From an uncultured bacterium (GTDB lineage Bacteria > SAR324 > NAC60-12), in contig CAXGMD010000069.1 in assembly GCA_964010765.1 (NCBI GenBank), positions 1-18,720 of the forward strand: DNA of 18,720 bases. Direction: 5' to 3'. Within the stretch, counting starts at the first letter, position 1. Every line of letters starts with the position of its first letter. The notes under the pieces are model-generated. The model did not search any database. It saw nothing but the letters and a program-made list of their open reading frames with translations, and had not been told where the DNA came from. A program made the position numbers and the translations under genes. This document shows, in pieces, positions 1-18,720 of the stretch.

Positions 1-451
1 TGGTATTTGAGGCTGATGGGATTGTGAAATTGTCGGTAACACCGTAATCAATGGCTCCGTCATCAAGAGTTTGGCTGGTCAGTTTGCTAAGTAGTTGATT
101 AGAGGTGAGGACTGTGGCGTAGCGGTAGATAAAGAGTTGGAGAGAAGCGTTGAGATCAAGCGATAAGGTGATTTGGTTGGAGCTTAAATCTAAAACTCCG
201 TAACTGCGATAGTCAGTGGGTCCTTTCTCAGAGAAGGTAGTCCCACCAGCAACAACAACGATGAACTCGGTGTTCCGTGAACTGGAGCCGGCACGAACAC
301 TCCGCTCGGATGTGCGATGTTGAAGGGTAAGGGTAACTTCCGCTTTATCGAGAGCTTCCCCTTCCTTCGGCAATGGGGCGCAGGTGCTCAGGAAAAAAGA
401 AAGGATCAGCAATAGATAGATCGTTTTTTTCTGTAACCGAGGTAGGGGCAT
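1..451 (-). CDS. 5' part (150 codons, runs off the window) of a predicted lipoprotein, tandem paralog of the 2799-aa surface protein
   Basis: Hand translation from the ATG at 451 is open to the window edge: MPLPRLQKKTIYLLLILSFFLSTCAPLPKEGEALDKAEVTLTLQHR...TEFIVVVAGGTTFSEKGP...NQITLSLDLNASLQLFIYRYA...GVTDNFTIPSASNT. It has a basic/hydrophobic signal peptide ending in L-S-T-C and about 81 of 122 identities (hand alignment) to the N-terminus of 793..9192. Confidence 0.9.
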   Translation of the reverse strand, partial: MPLPRLQKKTIYLLLILSFFLSTCAPLPKEGEALDKAEVTLTLQHRTSERSVRAGSSSRNTEFIVVVAGGTTFSEKGPTDYRSYGVLDLSSNQITLSLDLNASLQLFIYRYATVLTSNQLLSKLTSQTLDDGAIDYGVTDNFTIPSASNT

Positions 452-528
452 GCGTTATTATTTTTGATGGGAAATTTCAGGCAAGGCTCATGATTTTGCT
501 TAAGAAATAACTTAATTCAAGTACTGGA

Positions 529-544
529 TGCAACAATTATTGCA
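529..544. promoter_or_regulatory. Palindrome TGCAA-N6-TTGCA, candidate operator upstream of the paralog gene
   Basis: TGCAA CAATTA TTGCA about 78 bp upstream of the ATG at 451. The same arms and spacing recur at 15364-15379. Confidence 0.3.
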
Positions 545-704
545 CGAGTGAAGAAAAGTTTGAACTGTCCCTGGAATGAAGACCAGCAGAATTCAATAGA
601 ATCATATTTGAGAGAAGAGGATCACTCGATGAAGGTGATGATGACTTTCCCCATGTCCGCTTTTGAAAACTCCAAAATTTATGATGCTTGAAGTTCTAAA
701 GGTG

Positions 705-730
705 AGTGATTAGTCATGATCTTAATCACT
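705..730. repeat. Intergenic inverted repeat AGTGATTA-N10-TAATCACT
   Basis: Perfect 8-bp arms with an internal TCATGA palindrome, about 60 nt downstream of the giant gene's stop. It is AT-rich with no U-tract, so it is not a classic terminator. Confidence 0.5.
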
Positions 731-792
731 GTTTGTGATGTTTGATGACAAGCTGAGAATACTACCTGATATTCAAACGTTTAAAGCAATCA

Positions 793-3700
793 CTATTGCG
801 AACAAACGACAGATAGTGATTGAGTGTTACTGCCACAGGACCCGCCAATACCGCCCCAATTTTGATTTCCTATGCAAGGTCTTACAGTAAAGGCCGCGTC
901 ACAGGTACAGATACCACTAGTTGAGGCTGACAATTCTATGCCACCGCATGTGCCGACCCTCCAAGTTGTTCCACCGCACTCTGAAGAAGTGGGTGTGCCA
1001 CTTTTTAAAGCATTACAGAGTTCTGTAGCTGCAGATCCAGAACATATTTTTCCGATTGAATCGTTAGATCCATTAATTCTTATTGAAGAATAATTTCCAT
1101 TTAAGCTATCCCGGAAATGATTCCAATTAGTGCACTGGCTGCTGGATGATGAGAGAGTACCCGCGGTGAAATTTTCAGAATACGAAACCTCAATCACAAT
1201 CCAAGAAATGTTGTCAGAGTAGGATCCAGAAACATTCCCTGCCTCATCCTTGAACCAGACCTGTATTTCGCGCATTCCAGTCCCCGTTAACGTAAAGTTG
1301 TCTGAGCCACTGGATGGATAGTCCCGCCATCCTGCTGCTGTCGCAGAGGGGATGCTTGTAGCAGAGTCGTCTGTAGCAAAGTAGTGGCTGGCACCCATAA
1401 CATTGTAGAAGCTTAGAGTGACCGTCGAGGAGGTAGTGTTGTCGGCTCCATTGTTGATCAAGATGGAATTGGCCGTGGGGGAGACATTGTCAAAGGTGAT
1501 GTTTTCCATGAGGAAGCCGGAAATGTTCTGGGCGGCATCCTTAAACCAGAGGTAGATCTGTTTGGCTCCCTGCCCCGAACTCAGCTGAAAGGTTCCCGAA
1601 GTGCTGAAAGATTGCCAGCTGGAGGCGTTGTCTAAAGGTGGGGTGCTGTTTTCGCTAAGGTACATGCCAACAGCTGCAACATCATCAGTCGCACTCGCAG
1701 TGAAACTGACATTGGCTGAATTGGTGAAGTTGTCATTGCCTGCCGTTCCCAGCAATGAAAAGCTGAGGTGTTGGGGTGGGGTAGTATCGAGTCGGGTGAT
1801 GTTATCCGAGAAGGGTTGGGAGATATTGCTTGCCTGGTCTTGGAAGCGCACCTGGATTTGGCGTTCGCCATACAGCGGACTACCCAAGGTGAAATTGGTT
1901 GTGAAGTTGATGTTGTCTGATGGAGTCAGATTGTCGGAAATCCACGGCAACTCAGTAAAACTGCCATTGTCTGTGACTTGGTAGGCCACAATCGGCGAAG
2001 CATCCCGGGAAGTGAGGTTCAAGGTCAGCGTGTCCGAGGTGGTGTTATCGGCACCACTGTTGACCAACACACCTCCTTCGAGCGGAGGAACTGAGTCACT
2101 GACATTGATAAGTGCATGAATTTCATCCTGGTTCAGAGCCCGGTTGTAAAGCATGACTTCATCAATTTGTCCTCGCCAACCAAAGGAAGCTGAACCATCA
2201 GAATTTGGTTCTGCACCAATCGAAAGAGGAACTGATCCATGAACGATCTCATTAGCACTACTTGCTAGTTCAGCAATGTTCCCATCTATGTATAAAATTT
2301 GTTGATCTGAGGAATGGTCATGTACCACTGCAAAGTGATGCCAACCATTTTGAAGAGATGACGTTGGGTGTGTAAGAGAAACATAGCTTGAGCCAAGCAT
2401 AATTTGACTGCGGATTTTACTCACCCCTGAATCCACAAAGCAGCCTAAATTGTATCCACTGGACTGTGTTTTGGAGAGAATCAATTTTGTACTATTACAG
2501 CTAGTACTCCAATCATCAGAGTATGCCCAAACACTAATAGTCAGACTGCCAGTTGGTTTAAACAAGCTATTATCATTGATTTGAAGGTAATCACCGCCAC
2601 CAAAAGACATAGCCTTAGCATTGCCATTCAACCTGCTTGTAGAACTGGTAGCTCCATGGTTCGTCGCATCCAATGAATTTGTTCCTAGGTCAGCTCCATT
2701 TCCATTCATTGGATAGTAGGCAATCAGCCCATCACTGAGATTCGCACTTGGATTGATCGTGTCGGTGGTGAAGGGGAGGAGCCGGTTGATCTGGAAGATG
2801 GACTTGTTGTCACTCTGCTTCTTCAAACCAGTAGTGCCGATCAATTGATATGCAGTGGAGTTATCAAGTGGGCCATCCGGTACAAAACGAAGCGTGATGT
2901 TGTCAGGATCCATTAGCGGAGTGCCGGAAGAGAGGCTGCCGTTGTCTTGTTGCAAGAAGAAGTTGGTTGGATTGAGCGAATCTGGATTTAACGGATAGCT
3001 CAGCCGCATCCAGAGTTCAGGGGTCCGGTTGATATCTGTCGCGTTGTCACGCATTGAAGCGACGATCAAACCGCTACCTTCGGTGTACCAGACATCATTG
3101 AATCTTTGCCCAGCACCATTGTCTCCTGTAGCAATCCAGAGTTTGTTGTCGAATATAGTAGAGGTGAATCTAGAACGGGCAGGCCAGTCAGCGGCATCAA
3201 CCAACTCTATCCAGTTTGTGCCATCAGCTGTGTACCAGACATCATTAAAATTTAAATCTGGAGCAGAGCTGTCATTTCTTACTTCACCCCCGATCACCCA
3301 AATTTTGTTATCAAAGATAACGGCTTGATGATCCCATCGTGGTTCCCAGATTGCGCCCTGTGGGGTTACGGTTTGCCAGGTTTTACCATCAGAACTGTTA
3401 CGGATAGTGTTGATAAGTGTTCCAGGGTTTGGACCTTGCCAACCGCCAAGCATCCAGATTTTGCCATCAAAAACGACTGCGGTGGATTCAGCCCCATAAT
3501 CAACCCAGACTGAAGAAGTATTTTCTTGATCCCAATTGGTTCCATCAACAGAACTCCAGGCATCATTTTTCCAGCCGCTATTATGCCCCCCAATCACCCA
3601 AAGTCGGTCGTTGAAGACAACTGTAGAGTTGCGCCAACGCTTGCTCCATTCAGAATTTTCTGTAATTGACCAAGTAACCCCATTTGGAGAGCTCCAAATA

Positions 3701-6700
3701 GAGTTTGGATTAGCACCAGAACCCGAGTGCCCTCCCAGCACCCAGAGTTTGTTCTGGAAGACTGTGCTGGAGTGGTTTTGCCGTTGTACCCACATTTCGA
3801 GAGATTGGGTCGAAGTGCTAAATATGCTCCAGTCTACGCCATTTTCAGAGGTCCAGATTTGATTGGACACTGAGCCATTGTTGCCCCCTAGCAGCCAAAG
3901 CTTATTTTGGAAGACTTCCAAACGCGCTGCATTCAATGGTAGAAAGTCTGCGTTGGCGGTGGCCTGGATCCAGATTGCTCCTAGTTGGCCAGTGGTGAAG
4001 GTGTGGGTGAAGTTATCGATGATACTTTGCTGATCAGCGCTCCGAATATTCTGGAACTGAATCGTATATACGGTCCCTGCCACCAGAGGTTCAGCAGGCT
4101 GCAAAGTGAGGATTTGGGAAGTGTTGTCGTAACTGAAGTTGTCTAGACGGACTGCAGGAGTAATTTTGAGCGTATCTCCGAAAATCAAGGTGTTGTTGTC
4201 CAGAGGACGGTTGAAGCCGATCTGAATTCCTGCGGATCGACTGGCAGCGTTCGCATTGTCAAGGCCATCATGCAGTACACAGCTGACCTGCAGCGGTTCA
4301 TTTTGCCAGCGTAACCGAGGATAGTCACAGGCACTGCCTGGATCCCAAATATTATTAAAGTCCCAGCCTGTGTAGGTCTGTGCACCGTCGACAATATCAG
4401 TGCTAGTCAGGGTGTGTTTAAGTTGGGTTTCCGTACGATTATCACCAATAGTATTGAAAGAGCTTTGGGCTAACTGACTGTTATAATAAGTATTGATGAC
4501 AATGCCACCAGAATCATTATCGCCAACCACCCCACCAATGTCAGTTCCACCCGAAATAGATCCTATAGCATAAGAATTTTTTATGGGTCCAGCACCACTA
4601 TATCGACCAGTAAGCCCTCCCAAAAACATTCCTGAGCCGCCTAAACTGTCAGTAATATCAGTCAATGCATAGCTGTTAGTAATTGAGCCATTAGCTAAAT
4701 TTCCAACCAGTCCTCCAACTTTATTGTCACCAGCAACATTGCCCATTACAGAAGATAACTGGATTGAACCAGCAGCCATTCTGCCAACAAGACCTCCAAC
4801 TGAATCTTGTCCACTCAGGTTTAAATTTTTGATGGATATCTTTGAAATGCTTCCGAAGCTTTCCCCGATGATTCCCCCAGATTTGCTGTGCAATCCAACG
4901 ACTGTCAAATTATCTATTTCGATGTGTGAAATGGATCCAGTGGTTTGTTTGCCGGATAGCAACCCAACCCTTTCGTATCCCCGAATGTAAGCATCTTTAA
5001 ATTTCAAATCATTGATAGTACCGGAAACAAAACGAAAAAATCCTGTAAAGTTATCAGTTTGATTGTCAATGATTAGGTTACTAATGGTGTAGTTATCTCC
5101 ATTTATGGTTCCATTAAATTTATTTGTAGATGTTCCAAGTGGAGTCCAAACTTTTGTTAAAATTATATTATTAGTGAATGTATAATGAGCATTCATATTT
5201 TTGATAATTTCCCTCAGACCTTCCTCATTGCTGATCAGAAACGGATCTGTTGCAGAACCACCTCCCAACATTTGAGTTTGGAAAGGGATCTGGGTAGGAG
5301 AGATCGAGTTCCCGATAAAGTCTCGAATGCTTGAATGAAGATAGAGAGTATAGTTCGTGAGACTGCTCAGGTTTTCGATCGGATCAAAAATCAGTGATCG
5401 GTTATCGTTTGGATCTAAATAGAGATTTCCAGCTACAGTAGTATTGTCTGACCTGCGCAATTCCACGCTAGAAGCTTGAATTGTGCTGCCATCCAAAGGT
5501 TTATCAAAGGTAATCGTCAGATTATCCGCAACGCTAAATCCAGTTTCATTGTTGGCTGGTGTGCTACTGGTGATTTCCGGTGGGTTTGGATCTGCTACAG
5601 CGTAGAGAGCTTTGATTTCTGCAATCTGTAATGGTCGATTGTAAACTCTTATCTCATCTAGCTTGCCTCTAAAATAATGCAAGTCATGACTCCAGCCAAT
5701 TGTTAAATTATCAGACGAAGCGGTGTTCAAAGATAAAATAGATTGATCAATAACGTTTTGAAGATTGTAATAATATTTTAGATAATTCTGATCATATAAA
5801 AGACAATGTAGATTCCATCTACTATTATCGCTAATCCCAGAATTTATATCAGAATTATGTTTCCATAAAGACCATTGATCAGAATCATTCAAATAGATTC
5901 CAAATCCTCCATTAGTAACATCGTCTCCATATCTTACGGGCATTCCATTATTGTCATCATTAGATCTAATCCAAGCACATAAACTTCTTTTACTGTTGCC
6001 AAATGGTAATTTTGTATTTGTGATCCCTTTAACGTAGTCATCAACTCCATCAAGCTCTAAAGAATTATTTTCTCTGTTAAAACGATCTCGAGTTAATGAT
6101 GGTCCTCCATTAGCAACCGCAGTTTCTTGGTTTTGTCTCTCAACTGGGGGATTCTCATCCAAAGGATAGTAAGCGACCAACCCCTGGTTAAGGTCGAGGG
6201 TTTGATTATCACTCTGGAAGTGAAAGACCTGCGAAGCATAGAGTGAGAGGTTGTCAACATGTCCCTTGATCTCTAACTGGTAGCCCTGCTCCGGTTGCAG
6301 CGGTCCCTCCATCCAAAAGACCAGGCTGTCGTTATCGATATTCCATTGACCAGAGACACTCTGATTGTCTGAGCTGCGACTAACTCGAAGCTGCTCCAGT
6401 GGATAGCTGCTACTGAGGGTCTGTGGGTACTTGAGGGTCAAGGCTGCATAGCGATTGGCAGTTGGGCTGCTCTGATTATCGAGTCTCTCTTCTCCATCAT
6501 AGAGCCGAGACCAATATGCAGTCCTTGTGCTGAGTGCAGCAATGTTGCCCGCCTGATCCTTGAGCCACAGAGAGAGGGTTTGTTGCTGCAGGTCACTGGT
6601 ATTATCTAGCGCTATTGAATAGTACTGCTGTCCTGTTGCTTGCCAATTAGCGTCATGCATTGCCGGAGTCGAAGCATTATCCAATTGAGCCAGTAAGAAG

Positions 6701-9192
6701 ACACTGTCATTATCTCTTCCGCTGAGTAGCAGTTGGAAGCGGAGTTCCTTGTTGCTGTGAAAGAGTTCCAGTCGTAAAGCAGTCGCTGAGAGCAAGGAAC
6801 TGCCATTGTCCTGCTCTAGAGAGACTTGGCTGAGATCAGGCGTGACGTTGTCAAAGAGGATCTCAAAAGGATAGCCCCAGCCGATGTTGCCAGCTCGGTC
6901 CTGTACCCAAAGAACCAGGGACTGGGGGTTGGGATCACTGAGATTGTCAAAGACAAAACTCTGGTTGTCCCAGGCTGGCAACAGTGAACTGAAATTGTCG
7001 AAGCTGGCTATTCCAGGTGCATCACACGCAGGAGAGTTGTCAGGGTTGTCATTACCCGGATTGGGAACTCCATTGGCAAAGGCTCTCAACTCTTCAAGAC
7101 GCACACACTCCCATCGGGGGTCGATCCGAGTAATGTTGTCCCAAAGCTGGGAGCGGTCCGCCAAGCTCATTGGCGAATGGGGAAAGTCCTGCCAGCTTTC
7201 GAGATCTTTTGCAGGGTAGCTGTTTATACGGGTGACCAGGTAGCGCCAGGCGCCACTCAGATTGTCATTGGCCATCACCAGATAGGGTAGAGTGGGTTGG
7301 TTGGTGGCCTTTGGCAAAGTGAGCAGCCCGATCGGTGGGCTATAGTCGAGATTCACAGTGACACTTCGATTGTCGAGCAAGGTCCCATTGTCTTGACGGT
7401 ACCAGACTCGAACGTTTTGCTCACCTTCTGCTCCCTCCAACTCAAAGGGGACCTGCACTGGATAAAACAGGGGCAGTCTCCACTTACTCTCATTGTCTAC
7501 TGGAGCCTCACCCTGCCCGAGTTGGTACTGTGATCCTCCTTCCCCGACCATCAGCCCAATCAGCCGATCCCGGCTGACGTTATCATGAAACTCCCCAAGG
7601 TGTTGCAGTGAGGCCACTCCGCTACTTGGTCCGGAACCCGTCTGGAACCGCCAGCTGAGGTTGTCGTTTTCCAAGCCCTCGAAGGAGCGCAGACTTCCGG
7701 CCACCAAAGTAATTGTGAAGTTGTCATTGGCAGTCAAATCGTTACTAGGCAAACAGGAGATACTGATTGACTGCAGGCTGTTGGCACAGCTTACTTGGCT
7801 GCCATTGTCCAGTTGGAGATTCCAGCGGATACCCTGGGATCCGACAAAGAGTGGTCCATCGAAGGTTAAGGAAAGTACAGAGTTGGTGGGAACACTGGTA
7901 GAATTATTGTCAGGATGGAGCTGGACTAGCCTGGGGAAGAGAGAGCTAGGATGGTCTGCGGTAGAGAAGCTCCAGCTGAAATCAGCCTCAAGACTTCTGC
8001 CGGATTGGCTCAGTAGACCTCGTGAGACTGTAGCGTTAAACTGAGAATGCTGGGGGAGAGCTGTAGTTGGTTTAAAGAGAAGCCAGTTACGCTCAGTGGA
8101 GAGGGTGCCACTGAGCGGGCTGCCATTGCTATCGCTGAGCAGGAAGGAAGCAGGACCGATGGTGGAGGCTCGCAAGTTTTCATCAAAGACGACCCCAATA
8201 AGACCAGATGGAGAGGTGTGGTCTTCATTCTGAGCGGGAATGGTGGTGAAAGGCTTTAGGGCCCCTAGATTTTTGAGCCTCATGGTTCCCGCTAAGTGTC
8301 GCAGAGCACGATCTGCTGGGACTGCTAACTGGTCAAAGGAGGTGCCGTTGAGGGCTACGGAAGAATTGTCTCCAAAGTTCAAATTGGGGTTTAGTCCAGC
8401 GATTACGGAAGCATCGAGTTGAATGCCATTTTGGGGATCAGTGTCTCGGTCCATGGATTGGAGGAGTCTGGCAAAGTTGGTCACCCGATCGTCACTTTCG
8501 CCCTCCGTAACCTCGAACAGACTGTAGGGAGTCAACACTGCAGGGGGCTGTGTGAAGTTACCAAGGGGGAGGTTGCCCAGAGAGAGTGAGACCAGATTGT
8601 CTGGGAAGTAGTAAAGCAGTCCATCCTGGTTGGTGGTAGCGGTAGTTCCCCCAGTAGAGTAGGTCAGCCCTTTGACAGCAGAGTCGAGAAAGAGAGCTTC
8701 CCGCTGAAGCTGGACGGTCAGGCTTTGTGAAGTGGTTGAAGACTCAGAGGAGATACTGAAAGGTTCTGTCACCCCGAAGTCAATCGCATCTTGATCAAGA
8801 GTTTGGTTAGCCAGTTTTGTTTCGAGTTGACTGAGACTGAAGGTCTCAGCGTAACGATAGATGAAGAGTTGGAGGGATGTGTCCAGATCCAGGGAGAGAG
8901 TGATTTGGTTGAATTGGAGATCCAGAATGCCATAGCTCACAAAGTTGCTGGGCCCTTGCTCGGAGAAGGCCGTTCCACCGGGGACGACCACGATGAACTC
9001 GGTCAGTCGAGAGGCAGTGCCTGAGCGAGCCAGACGGTCAGCACGATGCTGCAAAGTCAGCGTTACTTCGGCTTGTTGACGCGACTCCCCTTCCTTCGGC
9101 AACGGAGCACAAGTCACCAGAAGTAAAGAGAGTAAACAAAGTAGCCGACCACTACAAAAGACAGGCTTGACCAGAAAAAACCGGAGTATCAC
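793..9192 (-). CDS. Giant (2799 aa) multidomain surface lipoprotein / putative adhesin
   Basis: Uninterrupted 8.4-kb ORF with a GTG start and a signal peptide ending in L-V-T-C (Cys28). Domains recognised by motif: an LDSAV...RLLQSMDRDTDPQNGI module (~8415-8695); SbsA/Big_5-like Ig domains (~7960-8250, 7640-7935, 5275-5585, 3990-4275, 2765-3055); two LamG-like jellyrolls (GL[VI]AYYP...G.[LI]DE...YNR.L...EI.AL; ~5600-6195 and 2105-2740); a GLUG-type VGGLVG repeat region (~4300-5270); six Kelch-like blades (~3075-3975); W.KD.AGN[IV] repeats; a 10-Cys C-terminal domain. Confidence 0.92.
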   Translation of the reverse strand: MILRFFLVKPVFCSGRLLCLLSLLLVTCAPLPKEGESRQQAEVTLTLQHRADRLARSGTASRLTEFIVVVPGGTAFSEQGPSNFVSYGILDLQFNQITLSLDLDTSLQLFIYRYAETFSLSQLETKLANQTLDQDAIDFGVTEPFSISSESSTTSQSLTVQLQREALFLDSAVKGLTYSTGGTTATTNQDGLLYYFPDNLVSLSLGNLPLGNFTQPPAVLTPYSLFEVTEGESDDRVTNFARLLQSMDRDTDPQNGIQLDASVIAGLNPNLNFGDNSSVALNGTSFDQLAVPADRALRHLAGTMRLKNLGALKPFTTIPAQNEDHTSPSGLIGVVFDENLRASTIGPASFLLSDSNGSPLSGTLSTERNWLLFKPTTALPQHSQFNATVSRGLLSQSGRSLEADFSWSFSTADHPSSLFPRLVQLHPDNNSTSVPTNSVLSLTFDGPLFVGSQGIRWNLQLDNGSQVSCANSLQSISISCLPSNDLTANDNFTITLVAGSLRSFEGLENDNLSWRFQTGSGPSSGVASLQHLGEFHDNVSRDRLIGLMVGEGGSQYQLGQGEAPVDNESKWRLPLFYPVQVPFELEGAEGEQNVRVWYRQDNGTLLDNRSVTVNLDYSPPIGLLTLPKATNQPTLPYLVMANDNLSGAWRYLVTRINSYPAKDLESWQDFPHSPMSLADRSQLWDNITRIDPRWECVRLEELRAFANGVPNPGNDNPDNSPACDAPGIASFDNFSSLLPAWDNQSFVFDNLSDPNPQSLVLWVQDRAGNIGWGYPFEILFDNVTPDLSQVSLEQDNGSSLLSATALRLELFHSNKELRFQLLLSGRDNDSVFLLAQLDNASTPAMHDANWQATGQQYYSIALDNTSDLQQQTLSLWLKDQAGNIAALSTRTAYWSRLYDGEERLDNQSSPTANRYAALTLKYPQTLSSSYPLEQLRVSRSSDNQSVSGQWNIDNDSLVFWMEGPLQPEQGYQLEIKGHVDNLSLYASQVFHFQSDNQTLDLNQGLVAYYPLDENPPVERQNQETAVANGGPSLTRDRFNRENNSLELDGVDDYVKGITNTKLPFGNSKRSLCAWIRSNDDNNGMPVRYGDDVTNGGFGIYLNDSDQWSLWKHNSDINSGISDNSRWNLHCLLYDQNYLKYYYNLQNVIDQSILSLNTASSDNLTIGWSHDLHYFRGKLDEIRVYNRPLQIAEIKALYAVADPNPPEITSSTPANNETGFSVADNLTITFDKPLDGSTIQASSVELRRSDNTTVAGNLYLDPNDNRSLIFDPIENLSSLTNYTLYLHSSIRDFIGNSISPTQIPFQTQMLGGGSATDPFLISNEEGLREIIKNMNAHYTFTNNIILTKVWTPLGTSTNKFNGTINGDNYTISNLIIDNQTDNFTGFFRFVSGTINDLKFKDAYIRGYERVGLLSGKQTTGSISHIEIDNLTVVGLHSKSGGIIGESFGSISKISIKNLNLSGQDSVGGLVGRMAAGSIQLSSVMGNVAGDNKVGGLVGNLANGSITNSYALTDITDSLGGSGMFLGGLTGRYSGAGPIKNSYAIGSISGGTDIGGVVGDNDSGGIVINTYYNSQLAQSSFNTIGDNRTETQLKHTLTSTDIVDGAQTYTGWDFNNIWDPGSACDYPRLRWQNEPLQVSCVLHDGLDNANAASRSAGIQIGFNRPLDNNTLIFGDTLKITPAVRLDNFSYDNTSQILTLQPAEPLVAGTVYTIQFQNIRSADQQSIIDNFTHTFTTGQLGAIWIQATANADFLPLNAARLEVFQNKLWLLGGNNGSVSNQIWTSENGVDWSIFSTSTQSLEMWVQRQNHSSTVFQNKLWVLGGHSGSGANPNSIWSSPNGVTWSITENSEWSKRWRNSTVVFNDRLWVIGGHNSGWKNDAWSSVDGTNWDQENTSSVWVDYGAESTAVVFDGKIWMLGGWQGPNPGTLINTIRNSSDGKTWQTVTPQGAIWEPRWDHQAVIFDNKIWVIGGEVRNDSSAPDLNFNDVWYTADGTNWIELVDAADWPARSRFTSTIFDNKLWIATGDNGAGQRFNDVWYTEGSGLIVASMRDNATDINRTPELWMRLSYPLNPDSLNPTNFFLQQDNGSLSSGTPLMDPDNITLRFVPDGPLDNSTAYQLIGTTGLKKQSDNKSIFQINRLLPFTTDTINPSANLSDGLIAYYPMNGNGADLGTNSLDATNHGATSSTSRLNGNAKAMSFGGGDYLQINDNSLFKPTGSLTISVWAYSDDWSTSCNSTKLILSKTQSSGYNLGCFVDSGVSKIRSQIMLGSSYVSLTHPTSSLQNGWHHFAVVHDHSSDQQILYIDGNIAELASSANEIVHGSVPLSIGAEPNSDGSASFGWRGQIDEVMLYNRALNQDEIHALINVSDSVPPLEGGVLVNSGADNTTSDTLTLNLTSRDASPIVAYQVTDNGSFTELPWISDNLTPSDNINFTTNFTLGSPLYGERQIQVRFQDQASNISQPFSDNITRLDTTPPQHLSFSLLGTAGNDNFTNSANVSFTASATDDVAAVGMYLSENSTPPLDNASSWQSFSTSGTFQLSSGQGAKQIYLWFKDAAQNISGFLMENITFDNVSPTANSILINNGADNTTSSTVTLSFYNVMGASHYFATDDSATSIPSATAAGWRDYPSSGSDNFTLTGTGMREIQVWFKDEAGNVSGSYSDNISWIVIEVSYSENFTAGTLSSSSSQCTNWNHFRDSLNGNYSSIRINGSNDSIGKICSGSAATELCNALKSGTPTSSECGGTTWRVGTCGGIELSASTSGICTCDAAFTVRPCIGNQNWGGIGGSCGSNTQSLSVVCSQ
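3075..3975 (-). repeat. Six Kelch-like repeats (beta-propeller) within the giant CDS
   Basis: VFQNKLWLLGG, VFQNKLWVLGG, VFNDRLWVIGG, VFDGKIWMLGG, IFDNKIWVIGG and IFDNKLWIATG, most followed by a W-x-S-x-[DN]-G-x-x-W-like motif. An exact 17-bp DNA duplicate, GTGTACCAGACATCATT, occurs at 3083-3099 and 3230-3246. Confidence 0.85.
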
Positions 9193-9359
9193 AAAAATTT
9201 CTTTAATGGACTAAAAACTGGTATATTATGCTGAAATTGATAGATTTATTTTGATTTTACCTTAAAGCATCTTACTATCATAACTACACCAAAGTTGGGT
9301 GCACAAAATGAGCTTGTACAGGAAAAAATTTTTTTAATCTGTGGAGGAACCAGAGTTGA

Positions 9360-10394
9360 CTAGCTGCGATGCCTCGGATCAAAGGCATCCCGAACGCCTT
9401 CGCCGATGAAAACGAGCAGGCTGAGCATCAAAGCCAAGACAAAGAATCCAGAGAGACCCAGCCACGGGGCATGGATGTTAGCTTTTCCTTGAGCAAGTAG
9501 CTCACCCAGCGAAGGCGAACCAACTGGTAGTCCAAAGCCGAGGAAGTCGAGGGAGGTCAACGTGGTGATCGAACTGTTGAGCAGAAAGGGCAGAAAGGTC
9601 AGGGTGGCGACCATTGCGTTGGGGAGGATGTGACGACGCATGATCGTGGCGTTGCTCAGTCCAAGAGCTTGGGCGGCCCGAACATATTCGAGATTACGAC
9701 CCCGAAGAAATTCAGCCCGGACGACCCCGACGAGTCCCATCCAACTGAACAAGAGCATAATGCCGAGCAGCCACCAGAAATTGGGTTCCACGAAGCTGGA
9801 GAGGATGATCAACAGGAACAGCACCGGCAATCCAGACCAGACTTCGATGAAGCGCTGACCACCCAGATCGACCCAGCCTCCGTAATAGCCTTGCAGGGCC
9901 CCAAAAGCGACGCCAAGGATCGAACTGAAGATCGTCAGGCAGAGTCCAAACAAAACCGAAATACGAAAGCCATAGATCAAGCGCGCCATGACGTCGCGTC
10001 CCTGGTCGTCAGTTCCCAACCAGTTTTCTGAAGAGGGAGGGGCTGGGGCCGGGACACTCAGGTTGTAGTTGATCGTGTCATAGCTGTAGCGAATCATTGG
10101 CCAGAGGATCCAACCCTTTTCTTCGATCAGGTCCTTGACAAAAGGATCGGTATATTCTGCTTCAGTCGCAAACTCTCCACCAAATTGAGTCTCAGAATAC
10201 TCTACCAAAAAAGGGGTGTAGAATTCTCCGTCAAAGCGAATCAATAGGGGCTTGTCGTTGGAGACGAGTTCTGCCAGTAGGCTGAAAAAAAAGAGAAAGA
10301 GGAAAAACCAGAGGGACCAATAGCCTCGTCGGTTGGCACGGAAAGCCCGCAGGCGTCGTTGATTGATTGGATTGGAGAGAAGGGAAGAGGCCAT
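9360..10394 (-). CDS. yejE: Peptide ABC transporter permease, YejE/OppC/DppC type
   Basis: Characteristic N-terminus (LSNPINQRRLRAFRANRRGYWSLW), NWLGTDDQGRDV..RLIYGFRIS, EAA loop (EYVRAAQALG) and C-terminal GEGVRDAFDPR. Confidence 0.88.
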   Translation of the reverse strand: MASSLLSNPINQRRLRAFRANRRGYWSLWFFLFLFFFSLLAELVSNDKPLLIRFDGEFYTPFLVEYSETQFGGEFATEAEYTDPFVKDLIEEKGWILWPMIRYSYDTINYNLSVPAPAPPSSENWLGTDDQGRDVMARLIYGFRISVLFGLCLTIFSSILGVAFGALQGYYGGWVDLGGQRFIEVWSGLPVLFLLIILSSFVEPNFWWLLGIMLLFSWMGLVGVVRAEFLRGRNLEYVRAAQALGLSNATIMRRHILPNAMVATLTFLPFLLNSSITTLTSLDFLGFGLPVGSPSLGELLAQGKANIHAPWLGLSGFFVLALMLSLLVFIGEGVRDAFDPRHRS

Positions 10395-10405
10395 GAGTGT
10401 TTGCT

Positions 10406-11215
10406 TTAGGAATCCAACAAGCGTCGAGCGAGTGTTAAGCTGCCCACAAAAGTCACCCCAGATTTTTTGAGAACACGCACAATCTCGTTCAAGGTTGCCC
10501 CCGAGGTCATCACGTCATCCACAAGCCAGACACGATCCGGGAGATTCGTAAAATGAACCTAAAAAACATTCTGCACATTCTTGCGTCTTTGTTCAATGTT
10601 CAAGGTGGTTGCTTGACTGGATCCTTGGATTTTTCGCGTGATTGGATTGGTCTTGGGCAGGCACAAAGTGGAGATGTGTCGCTGAATTTCCAATGCCAGC
10701 AATTGAGCCTGGTTGAACTGTCTCTGGCGCAAGCGACTGTTGGAGAGAGGCACAGGAACTAACGGCCCAGTCAACTCGACTCCCTTAATCATCAGCCCTT
10801 CATGAAAAAGCGTCCCCAGCAATTTGCGGAGCCTCTCTTGTTGCGAGAACTTGAAACTCAGCAGCGACTCTCGAATCGAATCTTCGTAACGCAAGACGCT
10901 GTGACATTCGTCCAGATGCCAGGTTGGAAAATTCTTGCAGGCTGAGCAGCCGAATTGGGATGGGTTCAAGGTGGGTTGTGCACAACGCAGACAGTGAGTC
11001 CTGATCCAAGGTAGGTTGACCTCGCACGAATAGCACAGCAGGTTGGTGAAAGGGCTTTCCGAATCTCCCCAAAGTGCCTGTCCACACTGCCAACACTGAC
11101 AAGGTAGCCATTTGCCTGGATTCAGCCAACTCTCAAATATAGTTCGCCAATTTGTCTTCCGACTGACCATCCGCGGTTGAAGTTGAATCACTTTGGGTGG
11201 GGTTTCTTTCGTCAA
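10406..11215 (-). pseudogene. comF: ComF family protein (double zinc ribbon + phosphoribosyltransferase domain) interrupted by an in-frame TAG at 10559-10561
   Basis: Four CxxC motifs (CWQC, CYSC, CLRC, CSAC), VPVPLS..RLRQRQFNQA and RRKNVQNVF. After the TAG the same frame continues VHFTNLPDRVWLVDDVMTSGATLNEIVRVLKKSGVTFVGSLTLARRLLDS to TAA at 10406-10408. The start is uncertain (TTG 11215 or ATG 11170). The stop could be a sequencing error. Confidence 0.85.
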
Positions 11216-11489
11216 AACTTTGATTGTTCAAGGCCAACAGACCCTGAACAGTGGGACGATCACGCCAAATGCCAAGCATCAGAAAATAACCGGTCAGCCC
11301 CCCAATAACCAGCAAGCTGAACTCTCCCCACTGTGAAGTCAGCCCAAGATCTATACCGACAAGAGCCCCTGGAATGATGGCGAATCCTGGAAATCTTAGT
11401 GCTCGCTCACCGCCAGCCAACAGCAACGTGAAAGCCCCAATGAAGAGACCCAGAATCGTAGCCATGATCAGAATTTGTAGAAAAGCCAT
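11133..11489 (-). CDS. Small hypothetical membrane protein (about 3 TM helices, polar acidic tail)
   Basis: ATG start, three Gly-rich hydrophobic segments, co-oriented and filling the gap between the nuclease gene and comF. Its 3' end overlaps the comF 5' region. Confidence 0.65.
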   Translation of the reverse strand: MAFLQILIMATILGLFIGAFTLLLAGGERALRFPGFAIIPGALVGIDLGLTSQWGEFSLLVIGGLTGYFLMLGIWRDRPTVQGLLALNNQSFDERNPTQSDSTSTADGQSEDKLANYI

Positions 11490-11549
11490 GATGTTTTTAG
11501 GTAAGGGATGTGATGAATCTAAAATTTAATTTTCAGAGATGGTTGTTGG

Positions 11550-12290
11550 TCAAGCAGGATCGTCAAATTCTGGGGGAGCCGCATAGGCTTTATACTCGAT
11601 CAAGGATTCCTGCAATAATCGATCACCGACGTCTAGGGTTTCTTTCTCCAATTCAGCAACCACCACTCGGTAGGGAGTGTTGCGCTCGACAAAGATCAGA
11701 TAGAAGGGGAGCCATTCGCCAGTGAGTTGGTAAATTCCCTGACGATACCAGGCGGCTTGAAAAGCATAGTGCCATTGGGTGTTGGCCTCGGTGATGGTCC
11801 GATAGGAAAATTTGAGATCTGCGATGAAGGCTTTCTCCGGACAGAACAGATCCAACCGGCCCTTGCAGCGCAAGCTGTTCTCAGGGGCTTCCCAGAAAAG
11901 TGAGACCTCCTTGAGGCTATTTTCCAGCATCCAGCTGGCCTTTGGGTGTGTGTTGACTGCATTCTGCGCATTCATCAATGCATCCCAGACGTTTGTGGGC
12001 AGCATGGTTGGACGAAATTCCTCGCTGGATGGTTCCTCCTCTGCTTCCAGTTTTTTTAACTTTCTGAGCGAAATCCCTGGGGCAAGTCTCTGATAGTCCT
12101 GCTCAAATCTCTCCGGTTCAAGCAGGAGACAGTGGCCCGCATTGCCGATCAGAACACCATGCGGGTTGTAGTAATTCCCAGGTCGGAAAATCTGCTTTAG
12201 AGTCGACTGATTCAGTCCTTGAGCTTGTTGATATTGCTCAAAGGGCATCTCCTCAAAAATACCGGTTTGAAAGTCGGCTTCCTCCATCAT
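11550..12290 (-). CDS. PD-(D/E)XK nuclease, RecE (exonuclease VIII) C-terminal / DUF3799-like
   Basis: Motifs G..[AG][23 protein letters not shown]...IADLK, Y..QAAWY and FIFVE-like [10 protein letters not shown]. Start placed at ATG 12290, which overlaps the gcvP stop (ATGA), giving 246 aa. Confidence 0.8.
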
Positions 12291-15169
12291 CGATATGATT
12301 CCACTGTTGGGCAAGAGCAGACCAGGTTGCGGTCTCCATAGGCGTTATCAATTCGATTGACGGTTGGCCAGAATTTTTGGGTTTGCATGCCTGGCAAGGG
12401 ATACGCTGCGATTTCTCGAGTGTAGGGATGCGTCCAGACCTCAGCGGTGAGGTCCAATTGAGTGTGTGGAGCGTTGACTAACGGGTTGTCCTCCAAAGGC
12501 CAGGTTCCTTCTTCTACTTGGCGGACTTCTTCACGGATCTTGAGCATGGCTTCACAAAAACGATCCAGCTCTTCTCTTGATTCGCTCTCCGTGGGTTCAA
12601 TCATGAGAGTTCCAGCGACAGGCCAGGACATGGTGGGTGCGTGAAATCCATAGTCCATTAGACGCTTCGCGATATCTTCCTCAGAGATTCCAGAGTTGTT
12701 CTTGAGGGGTCGGATGTCAAGGATACACTCATGGGCTAAGCGACCGTTCCGGCCACGATAGAGGATTGGATAGGCGTCACTGAGTCGTTCTGCCATATAG
12801 TTTGCGTTGAGAATGGCGACTTGGGAGGCAGTGCGCAGATTTGGTCCTCCCATCATGCGAATGTACATCCAGGAGATTGGCAGGATGCTTGGGCTTCCCC
12901 ATGGCGCAGCAGAAACAGCCCCACCGGTTCGATTTTCTGCAACCTTGATGATGGAGTGGTTCGGCAGATAGGGAGCCAGGTGAGAACGGACGCCAATGGG
13001 CCCCATTCCTGGGCCGCCGCCTCCATGCGGAATGCAGAAGGTCTTGTGCAGATTAAAGTGCATCACATCTGGTCCAAATTGACCGGGTTGAGCAATGCCC
13101 ACCAGTGCATTCAGGTTGGCTCCATCCATATAAACCTGTCCACCAAAGCCTTGGATGATTTCACAGATGTTGCAAATTTCTTCTTCAAAAACTCCATGAG
13201 TTGATGGATAGGTCACCATCAAGGCGGCTAGTTCGCTAGCGTGTGCTTCTGCTTTTTGACGAAGATCATTGACGTCAACATTCCCTTGGGAATCGCAGTT
13301 GACCACCACTACTTTCATTCCTGCCATCTGGGCACTGGCTGGATTGGTACCATGGGCAGAGCTGGGGATCAGACAGATGTGACGATGTACTTCTCCTTGG
13401 GAGATATGATAGTTGCGGATGGTCAGTAACCCTGCGTACTCGCCTTGAGCGCCGGAATTAGGCTGCATGGAGATAGCATCAAAACCGGTCAATTGCATCA
13501 GCCAATCTTCCAATTGCTGAATCATTTTCTGCATTCCTTGCGCCTGTTCTAAAGGCACAAATGGATGAAGAGACCCTACACTTTCCCAGGTCACCGGAAT
13601 CATCTCAGCGCTGGCATTCAATTTCATTGTGCAGGAGCCCAGCGGTATCATGGCCCGATTCAGCGCCAGATCCTTCTCTTCCAGATTTCTGAGGTAGCGC
13701 ATCAAGTCTGTTTCGGAGTGGTATCGATGAAAAACAGGATGGCTTAAAAAATCAGATACTCTTCGCAAGCTTTCGGGAATGCCGGCATCAGAGGAGTTGG
13801 CTTGACTGAGCAAGGAATCTAAATCTACTTCTACTCCAAAAACTTTGAGAAGCTTGCTGACATCTTCGGGAGTCGTGGTTTCATCAAGACTGACTCCGAG
13901 ATGAGTGGAGTCGATCACTCGAAGATTCATCTTAGCTTCTTGTGCACGCTGCAGAATTTCTGGCTGTTGCGTTTTGGTTTCGATGCAAAGGGTATCAAAA
14001 AACTGATCATTCGAGACAAACCCACCCTGATTCAAGCCTTGTCGAAGTAGTGCCGTCAGGGTATGAGTCCTTCGAGCGATCTTTTTGAGACCTTCAGGAC
14101 CATGATAAATTGCATAAAAACTTGCGATCACAGCAAGCAGAACCTGGGCTGTGCAGATATTGCTGGTGGCCTTCTCACGGCGGATGTGTTGCTCGCGAGT
14201 CTGCAATGCCATGCGAAGGGCAAGCTGTCCCTGTCGATCTTGAGAGACACCGATTAATCTTCCGGGCAGAGATCTTTTTAGGGTGTCACGCGTTGCCAGA
14301 AAGGCAGCATGTGGTCCACCATACCCCATGGGTACTCCAAAACGTTGGGCACTTCCAAAGACGATATCAGCGCCCATCTCTCCGGGTGGTTTGAGGAGCG
14401 TTAGGCTGAGTAAGTCCGTGGCCACAGCGACCAAGACCCCTTGCTGGTGCATGGCTTCGATCCACTCTGACCAATCATTGATCGGCCCAAATGTATTGGG
14501 ACACTGCAATAATGCTCCAAAATAGTCCCCACTGGGTATTTCTGCTGGCTCACCAACCACCAACTGGATGTTCATTGGTTCCGCCCTGGTTTGCAGAAGA
14601 TCGAGGGTTTGCCGGTGCAGATTGCGATCAACAAAGAACTGTTTGCTTTTTTTCTTTGAGTGACGTTGACAGAGTGTCATCGCTTCGGCAGCTGCAGTGG
14701 CTTCATCCAACAGTGAAGCGTTGGCCACCTCCATTCCTGTGAGATCCAGGACCATCTGCTGAAAATTGAGCAGCGCTTCCAGTCTTCCCTGGGCGATCTC
14801 TGCCTGGTAGGGAGTATAAGCGGTGTACCAGCCAGGATTCTCTAGGAGGTTCCGGCGAATTACAGCAGGCAGGTGTGTTCCGTAGTACCCCTGACCCAGA
14901 AAGCTCTGCCAAAGCTGGTTGGCTTCCATCATTGATTTCAACTCATTCAGAGCCTGCTCTTCACTTGCGGGTTTCAGGTCCAGCTTGCTTTGTGGCTGCA
15001 GAATGTCATGAGGTACCGTTTTTTCGAGCAAATCCTCTAGAGACTGCAATTCAAGGAACTGCAGCATTGCTTGTTGTTGAGCCTGGTTTGGCCCAATGTG
15101 ACGGTGGGCAAAATCAGCTGATGGCTGCAGTTGATGAAGTTCTTTGAGCAAGCTGGATTGTGTAGGCAT
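12287..15169 (-). CDS. gcvP: Glycine dehydrogenase (decarboxylating), glycine cleavage P protein, single-chain type
   Basis: [56 protein letters not shown], the PLP-lysine motif HFNLHKTF and C-terminal GDRNLVCSC. Start placed at ATG 15169 (960 aa) rather than the upstream GTG. Confidence 0.97.
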
Positions 15170-15279
15170 GAAATATTCAAGGAAAATTAAAAGATCAGGT
15201 AAGTAGCTTGAAATCACTCAATGAATCATGACAAATTCCGGTCATCGCTGCAAGGTTGGTACTATTAAAACTTAAGATC

Positions 15280-15308
15280 TTGACAGCCAATCTGACTTTG
15301 CCAAAGAT
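15280..15308 (+). promoter_or_regulatory. Possible sigma70 promoter for the ptsN-like/ClC pair
   Basis: Perfect TTGACA at 15280-15285 and a 17-bp spacer, but a weak -10 (AAAGAT, 3/6). Confidence 0.3.
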
Positions 15309-15363
15309 TTCTGATCATTAATCCATTCTTTGTTTGCAGCGAACAGTAGAAATAGTTATCATT

Positions 15364-15379
15364 TGCAAATTAAATTGCA
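15364..15379. promoter_or_regulatory. Palindrome TGCAA-N6-TTGCA, candidate operator
   Basis: TGCAA ATTAAA TTGCA 26 bp upstream of the ATG at 15406, with the same form as 529-544. Confidence 0.3.
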
Positions 15380-15405
15380 GTTGATTTTTCATTTAGTCAA
15401 AGTCC

Positions 15406-16071
15406 ATGGCTCAGATGCTCACAATCCCGGAGGTGGTTAATTTACTCCGGGTACCAGAAACAACGATTCGTCGCTGGATTCAACAAGGGGAGTTCCCTTG
15501 TACTATCCGAAACGGCAAGCCGCTCATCAATCAGGCCACGCTGATTTCCTGGGCAGAAGCCAAGCACCTCCGCTTGGGTTCATCCGCACTGGGCAAAAAG
15601 GGAAATCTTGTTTCAGACAATCTGTTGACTGCCTTGGAATTGGGAGGCACGCACTATGCGCTCAAGGGTGAAGATCGAGAGACAGTTCTCCGGCACATAC
15701 CTGGACAGATGCAGTTGAATAAGATCTCACCACAAAAATTGGAGACACTCCTCTTGGAGCGGGAGAACCAGTCATCAACTGCTCTCGGTAAAGGAGTAGC
15801 GGTTCCCCATCCTCGTTATCCTTTGCCCATCCCGAAATCGCAATCCCGTGTGGATGTGTTTTTTCTTTCCTCATCTATCGAATGGGACGCACCAGACGGA
15901 AAACCTGTTCATACACTCTTTCTTTTGCTCAGCGCCGAATCTTCCCACCATCTTAAGATCCTTTCGCAAATAGCTGGTCTGCTGCGGCAAGCAGGCGTCG
16001 AGGACTTTCTGCAGCAGGCACCTCCACAAGATGAAATCTTGGATTACATTCAAACAAGAACTTCACTCTAA
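15406..16071 (+). CDS. PTS EIIA (PtsN/fructose-mannitol type) protein with an N-terminal excisionase-like (HTH_17) DNA-binding domain
   Basis: N-terminal LTIPEVVNLLRVPETTIRRWIQQGEFP (Xis/MerR-like HTH). C-terminal LERE...STALGKGVAVPHPR (phospho-His motif), WDAPDGKPVH.LF.L and HLKILSQIA. Confidence 0.88.
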   Translation: MAQMLTIPEVVNLLRVPETTIRRWIQQGEFPCTIRNGKPLINQATLISWAEAKHLRLGSSALGKKGNLVSDNLLTALELGGTHYALKGEDRETVLRHIPGQMQLNKISPQKLETLLLERENQSSTALGKGVAVPHPRYPLPIPKSQSRVDVFFLSSSIEWDAPDGKPVHTLFLLLSAESSHHLKILSQIAGLLRQAGVEDFLQQAPPQDEILDYIQTRTSL

Positions 16072-17806: not shown

Positions 17807-17808
17807 AA

Positions 17809-18591
17809 TCAACTCCAAAGATGCAGTGTCCCAATTCCTGGCCAGTAAAGTTTTCCTTTCCAAGGGTTTAGCCCAAATTCCAGTGCAAACCACTGAAGAC
17901 GAAGCCCCTCTTCAATTCCAATAGAAATTCCAAAAATTCCCCAAAGAGTTAGTTGCAATCCCTTTCCGCCTGTCGTGGGTTGTATCCAAAAACCCAAAGG
18001 AAAATCCTTACCAATTGCAGTGGGTGGTAGAGTAACTTGAAGTTCAGGGACTTGTCGAAGCACATGTGCTGTAAAGGTGTTGCTGTTTGGACCAGGCCAG
18101 ACGCGATAGAATTCACTCGCAGGATAGCTGGCGATTGCGTCCTCAACTTTGTTGATTAGTTTTTCAGCTCCCTGTCCACGTACTTGACCATAAAGCTCAG
18201 GAGCATTCCCAAACCATGATCGATTTGGTAGTCCAGTTGATTCAGAAACCACGGGCATACCTCGAAAGTGCCGCCAACCGATCACATCATATCGACGAAA
18301 GTCAGGATCTCCTGCTTCTTTGATCGCAATCCAAGTGTGGACTGCAAACGCTCCACGCCAATTATAGGCTCTTGCTCCGTAGATTTGAATGACAGCCTGG
18401 TCCTTTGTCACCTCCGCATTCGGAATTGTAACTGCTTCTTGAGAGCTTCTGCTCCAGTGGGTGTCCAAATCTAGATCAGAGAACTTCCAGGTCCACAAGG
18501 GTCCAGTCAAGAGCAAGGGGGTTAATAAGACTAAGCAAAGGAGCAACAAGCGAATAGCTCTCCAAAGTCGTTGGTACCTGATGGGGATCAT
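17809..18591 (-). CDS. DUF3750 family protein with an N-terminal membrane anchor/signal
   Basis: Motifs YGARAYNWRGAFAVHTWI, YDVIGWR, WFGNAP, YRVWPGPNSNTF and LPPTAIGKDF, which I recognise as DUF3750. Convergent with the ClC gene, 2-bp gap. Confidence 0.8.
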   Translation of the reverse strand: MIPIRYQRLWRAIRLLLLCLVLLTPLLLTGPLWTWKFSDLDLDTHWSRSSQEAVTIPNAEVTKDQAVIQIYGARAYNWRGAFAVHTWIAIKEAGDPDFRRYDVIGWRHFRGMPVVSESTGLPNRSWFGNAPELYGQVRGQGAEKLINKVEDAIASYPASEFYRVWPGPNSNTFTAHVLRQVPELQVTLPPTAIGKDFPLGFWIQPTTGGKGLQLTLWGIFGISIGIEEGLRLQWFALEFGLNPWKGKLYWPGIGTLHLWS

Positions 18592-18630
18592 TTGTGGAAG
18601 AAGATGAGAAATTCTGTGGCGGTCGAGAGG

Positions 18631-18720
18631 CTAAGGGCGAATAACTTCCATACCAGGAGGAATCTCAAAACTAAAGAAATCCTCTGAAAATTTGACGTTG
18701 TAACTCAACGCTTCAAATTC
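18631..18720 (-). CDS. 3' end of a probable outer-membrane lipoprotein carrier LolA-family protein (partial)
   Basis: Open frame from the window edge: EFEALSYNVKFSEDFFSFEIPPGMEVIRP*, matching the typical LolA C-terminus (N......F.F..P.G.EVI). Only 29 residues are visible. Confidence 0.6.
   Translation of the reverse strand, partial: EFEALSYNVKFSEDFFSFEIPPGMEVIRP

Follow-up and report, generated by a model that had tools for sequence, protein, structure and literature searches.

The 18,720-nucleotide contig CAXGMD010000069.1 of assembly GCA_964010765.1 (positions 1 to 18,720, forward strand; hereafter the window) derives from an uncultured bacterium of the SAR324 lineage and encodes a giant modular surface lipoprotein of 2799 residues, which is predicted to accept N-linked glycans at the motif D-N-x-S/T. 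On the evidence of sequence comparison, N-glycosylation by a divergent oligosaccharyltransferase (OST) of the PglB type, with a preference for Asp directly before the acceptor Asn (position -1), is probably the best reading of this motif, and D-N-x-S/T is likely an undescribed address code for sugars on Asn.

The giant lipoprotein contains 53 D-N-x-S/T motifs, the number already counted by hand in a preliminary description of this DNA, and 53 of its 65 D-N dipeptides are followed by Ser or Thr at +2. Residue shuffles (n=2000) yield a mean of only 3.07 motifs (standard deviation 1.74, maximum 11). The earlier statement that the middle residue is never Pro is correct as well (0/53 at +1). In total the protein has 90 N-x-S/T sequons against a shuffle mean of 44, and the remaining 37, with a residue other than Asp at -1, amount to the background level; for E-N the count is 6 motifs in 11. 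Asp or Glu at -2, the Campylobacter-type acceptor feature, is present in 3 of the 90 sequons. All 53 matches in the DNA fall in the coding frame, with none in the other two sense frames and two on the antisense strand. This frame restriction, together with the fact that 52 of the 53 encoding twelve-mers are distinct, rules out a DNA repeat or nucleotide-level motif, and the shuffles and an N-D control rule out amino-acid composition as the cause.

The protein consists of Big_5/Ig-like modules, two LamG domains, a GLUG-type β-helix (a label from precomputed PF07581 matches on homologues, the protein itself giving no such match), a Kelch propeller and a Cys-rich C-terminus. A lipid anchor is predicted from the sequence, so that the chain would cross the periplasm. 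With region boundaries taken from Pfam and by-eye placement, 52 of the 53 motifs lie in the N-terminal, Big_5/Ig-like and β-helix parts, including 21 motifs in 22 D-N dipeptides in the Big_5 modules together, whereas the two LamG domains, the Kelch propeller and the C-terminus (∼840 residues) share a single motif. The earlier claim that the motifs are dispersed across folds without tandem duplication is thus right about duplication, given the distinct twelve-mers, and too generous about dispersal. An AlphaFold model of residues 2049-2660 (mean predicted local distance difference test score, pLDDT, of 51) places the motif Asn residues in coil (10/14), helix (1) and strand (3), and is too poor to be used for estimating burial.

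The motif in the window's genome and in homologous proteins

The genome that contains the window (G000; 92.4% complete, 266 contigs, 3554 open reading frames (ORFs) called by script) encodes five further proteins with 6-26 motifs. When its proteins are classed by a hydrophobicity heuristic as lipoproteins, other signal-peptide proteins or cytoplasmic proteins, the lipoproteins hold 101 motifs versus 17.5 expected and the cytoplasmic class 102 versus 129. The contrast between secreted and cytoplasmic proteins implied by the preliminary description is therefore found in so far as the excess is absent from the cytoplasmic class; it belongs to a handful of surface proteins and not to the secretome as a whole.

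In a pooled set of 17 SAR324 proteins, which are partly homologous and hence not independent, 445 of 502 D-N-(non-Pro) sequences have Ser or Thr at +2. Pro at +1 is observed in none of the 445 motifs, where ∼17 would be expected, and Thr (252) outnumbers Ser (193) although Ser is the commoner residue. The S/T rate depends on the residue at -1: it is 0.89 for Asp and mildly raised, to 0.43 (24/56), for Glu, while Gly, Ser, Thr, Asn and Pro give no rise. Asp or Glu at -2 gives 30/141, equal to the 21% background, and a -2 rule of the Campylobacter type is again absent. According to PMC8342417 and PMC8479172, a fixed Asn, the exclusion of Pro at +1 and a preference for Thr are hallmarks of the WWD/TIXE pocket.

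Four close homologues of the giant lipoprotein have 42-43 motifs in 45-48 D-N dipeptides, and in homologues that are ∼35-54% identical 239 of 340 aligned sites retain the motif, with free exchange of x and of Ser and Thr. Giant proteins of the same genus range from 8/8 up to 61/67 D-N dipeptides in the motif, and an LpoA-like protein keeps 3-6 sites in its linker in all genomes of genus g1. In other genera of the family, the giant proteins show 1/10, 3/15, 2/18 and 4/11. In 58 non-SAR324 homologues that share a LamG, Big_5, GLUG or Kelch domain, 114 motifs occur in 655 D-N dipeptides (131.7 expected); since these same-domain proteins are at expectation, fold and composition are excluded as the cause of the excess.

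PglB-type enzymes in SAR324 and in other phyla

A pglB gene is present in 14 of 44 genomes of the SAR324 family, in genera g1, g2, g4, g11 and g12, and in none of 19 genomes of the sister family. The encoded proteins of 730-770 residues score 77-112 bits against the equivalog NF050801, whose cut-off is 1300. An AlphaFold model of one of them (pLDDT 93) has the GT-C fold with a periplasmic WWD domain, and aligns with Campylobacter lari PglB (6GXC) over 623 residues with a Z of 32.8, a root-mean-square deviation of 3.0 and 18% identity. Residues D76, R205, D214, E344, R401 and W508 are invariant in 118/118 aligned homologues, D212 is kept in 115/118 and D509 in 108/118, and the equivalents of C. 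lari D56, R147, D154, D156, E319, R375, TIXE and WWD are all kept (C. lari numbering as in PMC7226087 and PMC12229607). The position of C. lari Tyr152 is taken by Arg in 109/113 SAR324-type homologues and in 104/118 wider homologues, within a subfamily signature G-R-x-D-T-D. Lys/Arg at 347 and Arg400 were also considered as Asp readers and dropped, as these positions vary. Several SAR324 PglBs (L034, L035, L038, L039) themselves carry D-N-x-S/T in the EL5 loop or the periplasmic domain. In one genome, G052, pglB is part of an operon of lipid-linked glycan synthesis genes with the order dehydrogenase-GT4-wecB-pglB-wecA-like, and G000 contigs C176 and C253 carry homologues of these glycan genes.

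Genome-wide counts refer to pairs of matches to a D-N-x-S/T codon pattern that fall within 30 bases (Ser AGY codons left out, frame ignored), with the same pattern for N-D as a control. In the SAR324 family, where the control covers 41 of 45 genomes (a size limit removed four g11 genomes), genera with pglB (32 genomes) have 929 D-N pairs versus 105 control pairs, and genera without it (9 genomes) have 74 versus 137. Genus g2 is strongest, with 109-115 pairs versus 0-1 in G009, G020 and G057. The DNA around pglB of G052 matches g11 genomes only in rearranged pieces. The link between motif and enzyme in SAR324 holds by genera and fails genome by genome.

Subfamily matches are found in the SAR324 cluster/Deltaproteobacteria, Deferribacterales, Desulfurellales, magnetotactic Nitrospirota, Myxococcota, Puniceispirillaceae (SAR116), Thermodesulfobacteria and Aquificota. 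From 68 non-SAR324 PglB loci 50 genomes were searched, 39 of them also with the N-D control, and 19 of these 50 genomes reached through PglB have at least 10 pairs and more than 2.5 times the control. Motif proteins in such genomes reach 46/58, 37/46, 29/32 and 15/17 D-N dipeptides in the motif; 21 proteins that were picked for having at least four motifs, and are therefore descriptive only, give 257/340 with no Pro and with Thr (145) ahead of Ser (112). In Deferribacterota and related genomes, motif-rich proteins at L194, L199, L201, L202 and L203 include what we take to be pilin-like proteins (4/4 to 5/6 D-N dipeptides) and C-termini of ExeA-like ATPases (up to 6/6).

In the Deferribacterota, 61 genomes were searched. 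The 48 genomes with a full or contig-cut PglB have 1061 pairs versus 86 control pairs (median 16.5; 39 genomes with at least 8), whereas the 13 with none, or with only a truncated STT3-like protein, have 55 versus 25 (median 2; one genome with at least 8). In an unselected 800 kb of G128, which has PglB, 81 exported proteins hold 33 motifs versus 9.9 expected and 431 cytoplasmic proteins 48 versus 46.1; in an unselected 360 kb of G143, which has no full PglB, the figures are 5 versus 5.2 and 22 versus 21.2. G132 and G075, with Tyr or Trp in place of the signature Arg, have 3 and 2 pairs. The STT3-like membrane protein of Deferribacterota without full PglB (520-590 residues; L329:6391-7980, L330:7875-9434, L317:187-1890) lacks WWD and occupies one conserved neighbourhood, beside a gene that is presumably LysR-like. 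Several Deferribacterales carry a tandem pair of full-length PglB paralogues (L128, L130, L157). SAR116-like PglBs (L159, L173, L176, L177, L180, L185, L186) and one Myxococcota enzyme fall together within the SAR324 branch (0.98-0.99 support, midpoint root); the SAR116-like enzymes have Q-x-x-x-W where others have D-x-x-x-K, and only some of their genomes have the motif.

A candidate mechanism and its alternatives

The giant lipoprotein is likely a heavily N-glycosylated surface adhesin with the motifs as acceptor sites. The sequon interpretation put forward in the preliminary description draws good support from a motif that is ∼17-fold above chance, excludes Pro, favours Thr over Ser, is limited to exported proteins, is absent from homologous folds elsewhere and co-occurs with PglB; the relatives' PglB has all catalytic residues and WWD, and lies in one genome in a lipid-linked glycan operon. 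The window's own species would carry pglB in an unassembled glycan island, and a PglB of the subfamily would read the motif and move the glycan to Asn in the periplasm, as suggested by co-occurrence in SAR324, Deferribacterota, Nitrospirota, Myxococcota and part of SAR116. The Arg of G-R-x-D-T-D, at the position of C. lari Tyr152, might bind Asp(-1), although its orientation towards the -1 side chain is conjecture. The glycans could then cover the Ig-like stalk, leaving the LamG and Kelch binding heads bare. As the mechanism would be Campylobacter-like and the -2 acid is missing, the system would represent a variant of PglB glycosylation. The further proposal of a distinct OST preference is supported by comparison among genomes; the G000 assembly has no pglB, and Asp(-1) may be preferred without being strictly needed. 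The roles suggested in the preliminary description, a shield against phage or grazers or an aid to adhesion, would be speculative additions.

A number of observations weigh against a PglB that reads Asp(-1). Without their top three members the G000 lipoproteins have only 16 motifs versus 10.5 expected, and the other signal-peptide proteins 32 versus 38.7. The OST that the preliminary description led one to expect is represented by intact PglB in relatives, but G000, at 92.4% completeness, gives no STT3/PglB match with PF02516, PF21436, tblastn or the subfamily alignment; in G000 the slots priA-aldehyde dehydrogenase and ruvB-mfd, where G001 and genera g4/g12 have their pglB, are intact and contain no such gene. 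In the four sequencing runs examined (of 20 that hold the window and are possibly its sources) the depths of pglB and of PBP1a are only ∼0.5-0.8 of the window's, and no contig joins pglB to C241, the PBP1a contig of G000. Detection of the gene is limited to 3 of the 8 genomes of the same genus and 3 of the 18 from g11; G005 (99% complete), G018 (92%), G054 (5 contigs, 86%), G007 and G024 are motif-rich without detected pglB, and G021 and G058 are motif-poor despite it. For two g4 genomes that have pglB the counts are as low as 5 and 1 pairs. Seventeen pairs occur in G131, which lacks a full PglB; 6 of these are out of frame, 2 run across a stop and 4 belong to a single tandem repeat. A Thermodesulfobacteria/Aquificota branch (18 genomes, support 1.0) has PglB and 0-5 pairs per genome. 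Among nine SAR116-like or other alphaproteobacterial genomes in which the PglB locus is full or nearly full, five have no clear excess, and neither has one further genome with only a fragment. The Thermodesulfobacteria/Aquificota PglBs retain the Arg, mostly after a bulky residue replacing Gly; since it is retained in motif-poor branches, the Arg is not sufficient. Moreover, the genomes in these comparisons are kin and not independent. In C. lari PglB, Arg331 binds Asp(-2). Its equivalent is Gln in the window's genus and not Arg in the Deferribacterota rows, but is Arg in 73/113 SAR324-type homologues, so the -2 reader has not been lost throughout. Two results from the literature count in favour of the Asp(-1) reading. 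Desulfovibrio PglBs used RDNAT and not RQNAT (PMC4894442), and in PMC11164674 the enzymes from M. schaedleri and F. sinusarabici gave no transfer of the glycans tested to D/E-X-N-X-S/T acceptors, although a mismatched glycan or poor expression could account for this negative equally well. The PglBs of F. sinusarabici and Calditerrivibrio nitroreducens bear the subfamily signature as G-R-V-D-T-D.

It is unlikely that PglB is instead a relaxed enzyme for any N-x-S/T, with Asp(-1) selected in the substrates because a turn or exposed acidic loop is reachable after folding. Such an enzyme would fit the variable Arg331 equivalent, the candidate Arg kept in the motif-less branch and the coil positions in the low-confidence model, and PMC4894442 reports that Desulfovibrio PglBs glycosylate RDNAT and not RQNAT, which its authors read as context dependence. 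However, only Asp, and weakly Glu, at -1 raises the S/T rate, and sequons without Asp stay at background, which is unexpected for a relaxed enzyme under selection for glycans. In an XXNXT screen, D. marinus PglB showed a slight Thr(-1) preference and no Asp(-1) bias (PMC12229607).

Loss of pglB in the window's species and some relatives, leaving a sequon that is right for the lineage as a relic, is another improbable explanation. The gene is undetected in G000, G004-G008 and 15 of 18 g11 genomes, and its location differs between genera. The LpoA-like linker nevertheless retains its sites in every g1 genome, and the state of the glycan island points to a different cause. In G002 and G003 pglB lies in a glycan island adjoining cysDN, which in G002 also includes gmd, rmlC, rmlA and PBP1a (labels from recognisable sequences). 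The corresponding neighbours in G000 are scattered over contigs C241, C176, C253 and C227 (1.8-4.0 kb) that stop inside rmlA, wecB and wecA-like genes, at or near the expected pglB position. An insertion sequence-like repeat (L098:14200-14600) adjoins the island and breaks other assemblies; it occurs dozens of times in G005 and G007, often at the end of a contig. All four runs examined hold pglB contigs, ∼90% identical to pglB of G002 (depths: pglB 4-14, PBP1a 5-15, window 9-18), and their PBP1a contigs carry the C241 allele at 23 of the 24 sites listed. Given the fragmented island and the pglB contigs in all four window-holding runs, the absence of pglB from G000 is likely an assembly gap.

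A quite different enzyme, such as a Wzy_C/PglL-type O-OST or a PMT/TMEM260-like GT-C transferase, perhaps acting on Ser/Thr while PglB travels along in glycan islands, is very improbable. G000 does possess two Wzy_C, two PMT_2 and one TMEM260-like gene (L003:103-2121, L001, L002; C121, C253) and no pglB, and pglB is undetected in many motif-rich SAR324 assemblies. A six-frame WWDxG scan of G000 and a Pfam scan of 30 chosen membrane or motif-rich proteins found no OST; GT41 and HMW1C_N gave no match in this incomplete genome, the latter search having no positive control, and blank searches with PF08409 and PF18071, also without one, say little. Against such an enzyme, the fixed Asn, the exclusion of Pro and the preference for Thr fit the WWD/TIXE pocket (PMC8342417 and PMC8479172), and the distribution of the motif within Deferribacterota follows full-length PglB, not the truncated protein without WWD. 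The possibility that the motif is an unmodified structural or calcium-binding turn of Ig-like marine adhesins, suggested by its concentration in Big_5/Ig-like modules and its conserved position at aligned sites, can be all but set aside, as same-domain homologues elsewhere and giant proteins of pglB-less SAR324 genera have no motif excess and the motif also occurs in the LpoA-like linker, the presumed pilin-like proteins and the ExeA-like ATPase C-termini.

With Asp(-1) reading by a divergent PglB as the preferred explanation, a broader proposal has a slightly better than even chance of being correct: D-N-x-S/T would be a third OST acceptor rule, used by a PglB subfamily of SAR324, Deferribacterota (including cultured and gut lineages), magnetotactic Nitrospirota, some Myxococcota and SAR116, in which an Arg adjoining the D-x-D motif reads the Asp. 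It would explain the apparent inactivity of the cloned Deferribacterota PglBs and make dense surface N-glycosylation common in abundant ocean bacteria. If true, the Asp(-1) rule would constitute a new OST specificity class, general N-glycosylation would reach several more phyla, abundant marine bacteria among them, glycoproteins in those phyla would be predictable from sequence, and an OST with an orthogonal sequon would be useful in glycoengineering. The rule is directly testable, as subfamily enzymes have been cloned, hosts are cultured and an XXNXT library screen exists.

Other features of the window and relation to known systems

Beyond the giant gene, the other eight full-length ORFs of the window (2982 residues) contain no motif in 3 D-N dipeptides, in agreement with the preliminary description, and the fragment of a paralogue has, as described there, one motif, DNFT, where the giant protein reads EPFS. 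In runs X7 and X11, positions 1-3670 have ∼2 times the contig depth of the remainder, which may point to duplication of the giant gene's 3' part in those populations. One X7 contig links position 292 with 9083, where the two paralogues have their homologous starts.

Table 1. Features of the window, with position, strand and basis of assignment.
Feature	Position	Strand	Basis
Paralogous lipoprotein, N-terminal 150 residues, cut by contig end	2-451	(-)	ORF
Modular surface lipoprotein, 2799 residues, predicted D-N-x-S/T acceptor	793..9192	(-)	ORF + Pfam
Span of the 53 motifs, residues 275-2663, spacing 4-323 residues	1204..8370	(-)	Motif count on translation
Second LamG domain, spared, 0 motifs/1 D-N	2098..2742	(-)	Pfam
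Kelch propeller, spared, 0 motifs/3 D-N	3073..3972	(-)	Pfam
Best Big_5 domain, residues 1201-1306, 3 motifs	5275..5592	(-)	Pfam
First LamG domain, nearly spared, 1 motif/3 D-N	5593..6177	(-)	Pfam
Signal peptide with lipobox-like LLVTC at end (Cys28)	9109..9192	(-)	Sequence heuristic
ABC permease, motif-free	9360-10394		
Small Cys-rich ORF (presumably ComF-like), no Pfam match, motif-free	10559-11215		
DUF3799 PDDEXK-like protein, motif-free	11550-12314		
ORF (presumably glycine dehydrogenase), motif-free	12287-15217		
HTH-PTS EIIA, motif-free	15406-16071		
CLC-CBS, motif-free	16031-17806		
DUF3750, motif-free	17809-18591		

A full-text literature search, with subscription journals outside its coverage, found no description of a D-N-x-S/T rule or of a SAR324 PglB. 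PMC6025236 cites Mills et al. 2016 on Deferribacter desulfuricans PglB for differing sequon recognition, which may bear on novelty. Bacteroidetes-type D-S/T O-glycosylation was set aside by reasoning alone, as its motif has Ser/Thr directly after Asp.

Bacterial N-glycosylation of the OST type is known mostly from Campylobacter relatives, with enzymes that follow the -2 rule or are relaxed. HMW1C/ApNGT systems, for which no Asp(-1) rule is known, resemble the present one in dense N-x-S/T glycosylation of a large surface adhesin and differ in that their enzymes are cytoplasmic. Of the cloned Deferribacterota PglBs, that of F. sinusarabici shares the subfamily signature; in PMC11164674 it and the M. 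schaedleri enzyme were assayed on Campylobacter-type acceptors and yielded no product. The Desulfovibrio PglBs (D. gigas, D. desulfuricans, D. marinus) are alike in needing no -2 acid and in using RDNAT (PMC4894442); unlike these enzymes, which are reported to be broad, the substrates here are biased ∼90% to a single residue. The closest comparison is with C. lari and C. jejuni PglB (3RCE, 5OGL, 6GXC; NF050801), which share the fold, catalytic residues, TIXE and WWD, as well as exported acceptors and an N-x-S/T core that excludes Pro and is extended by one upstream acid. This acid is at -2 in Campylobacter and at -1 here, with Asp strongly favoured over Glu; in addition, the subfamily is only 18-19% identical to the Campylobacter enzymes, has Arg for Tyr152 and D-x-x-x-K in the C-terminal domain, and is associated with up to 53-61 sites per protein.

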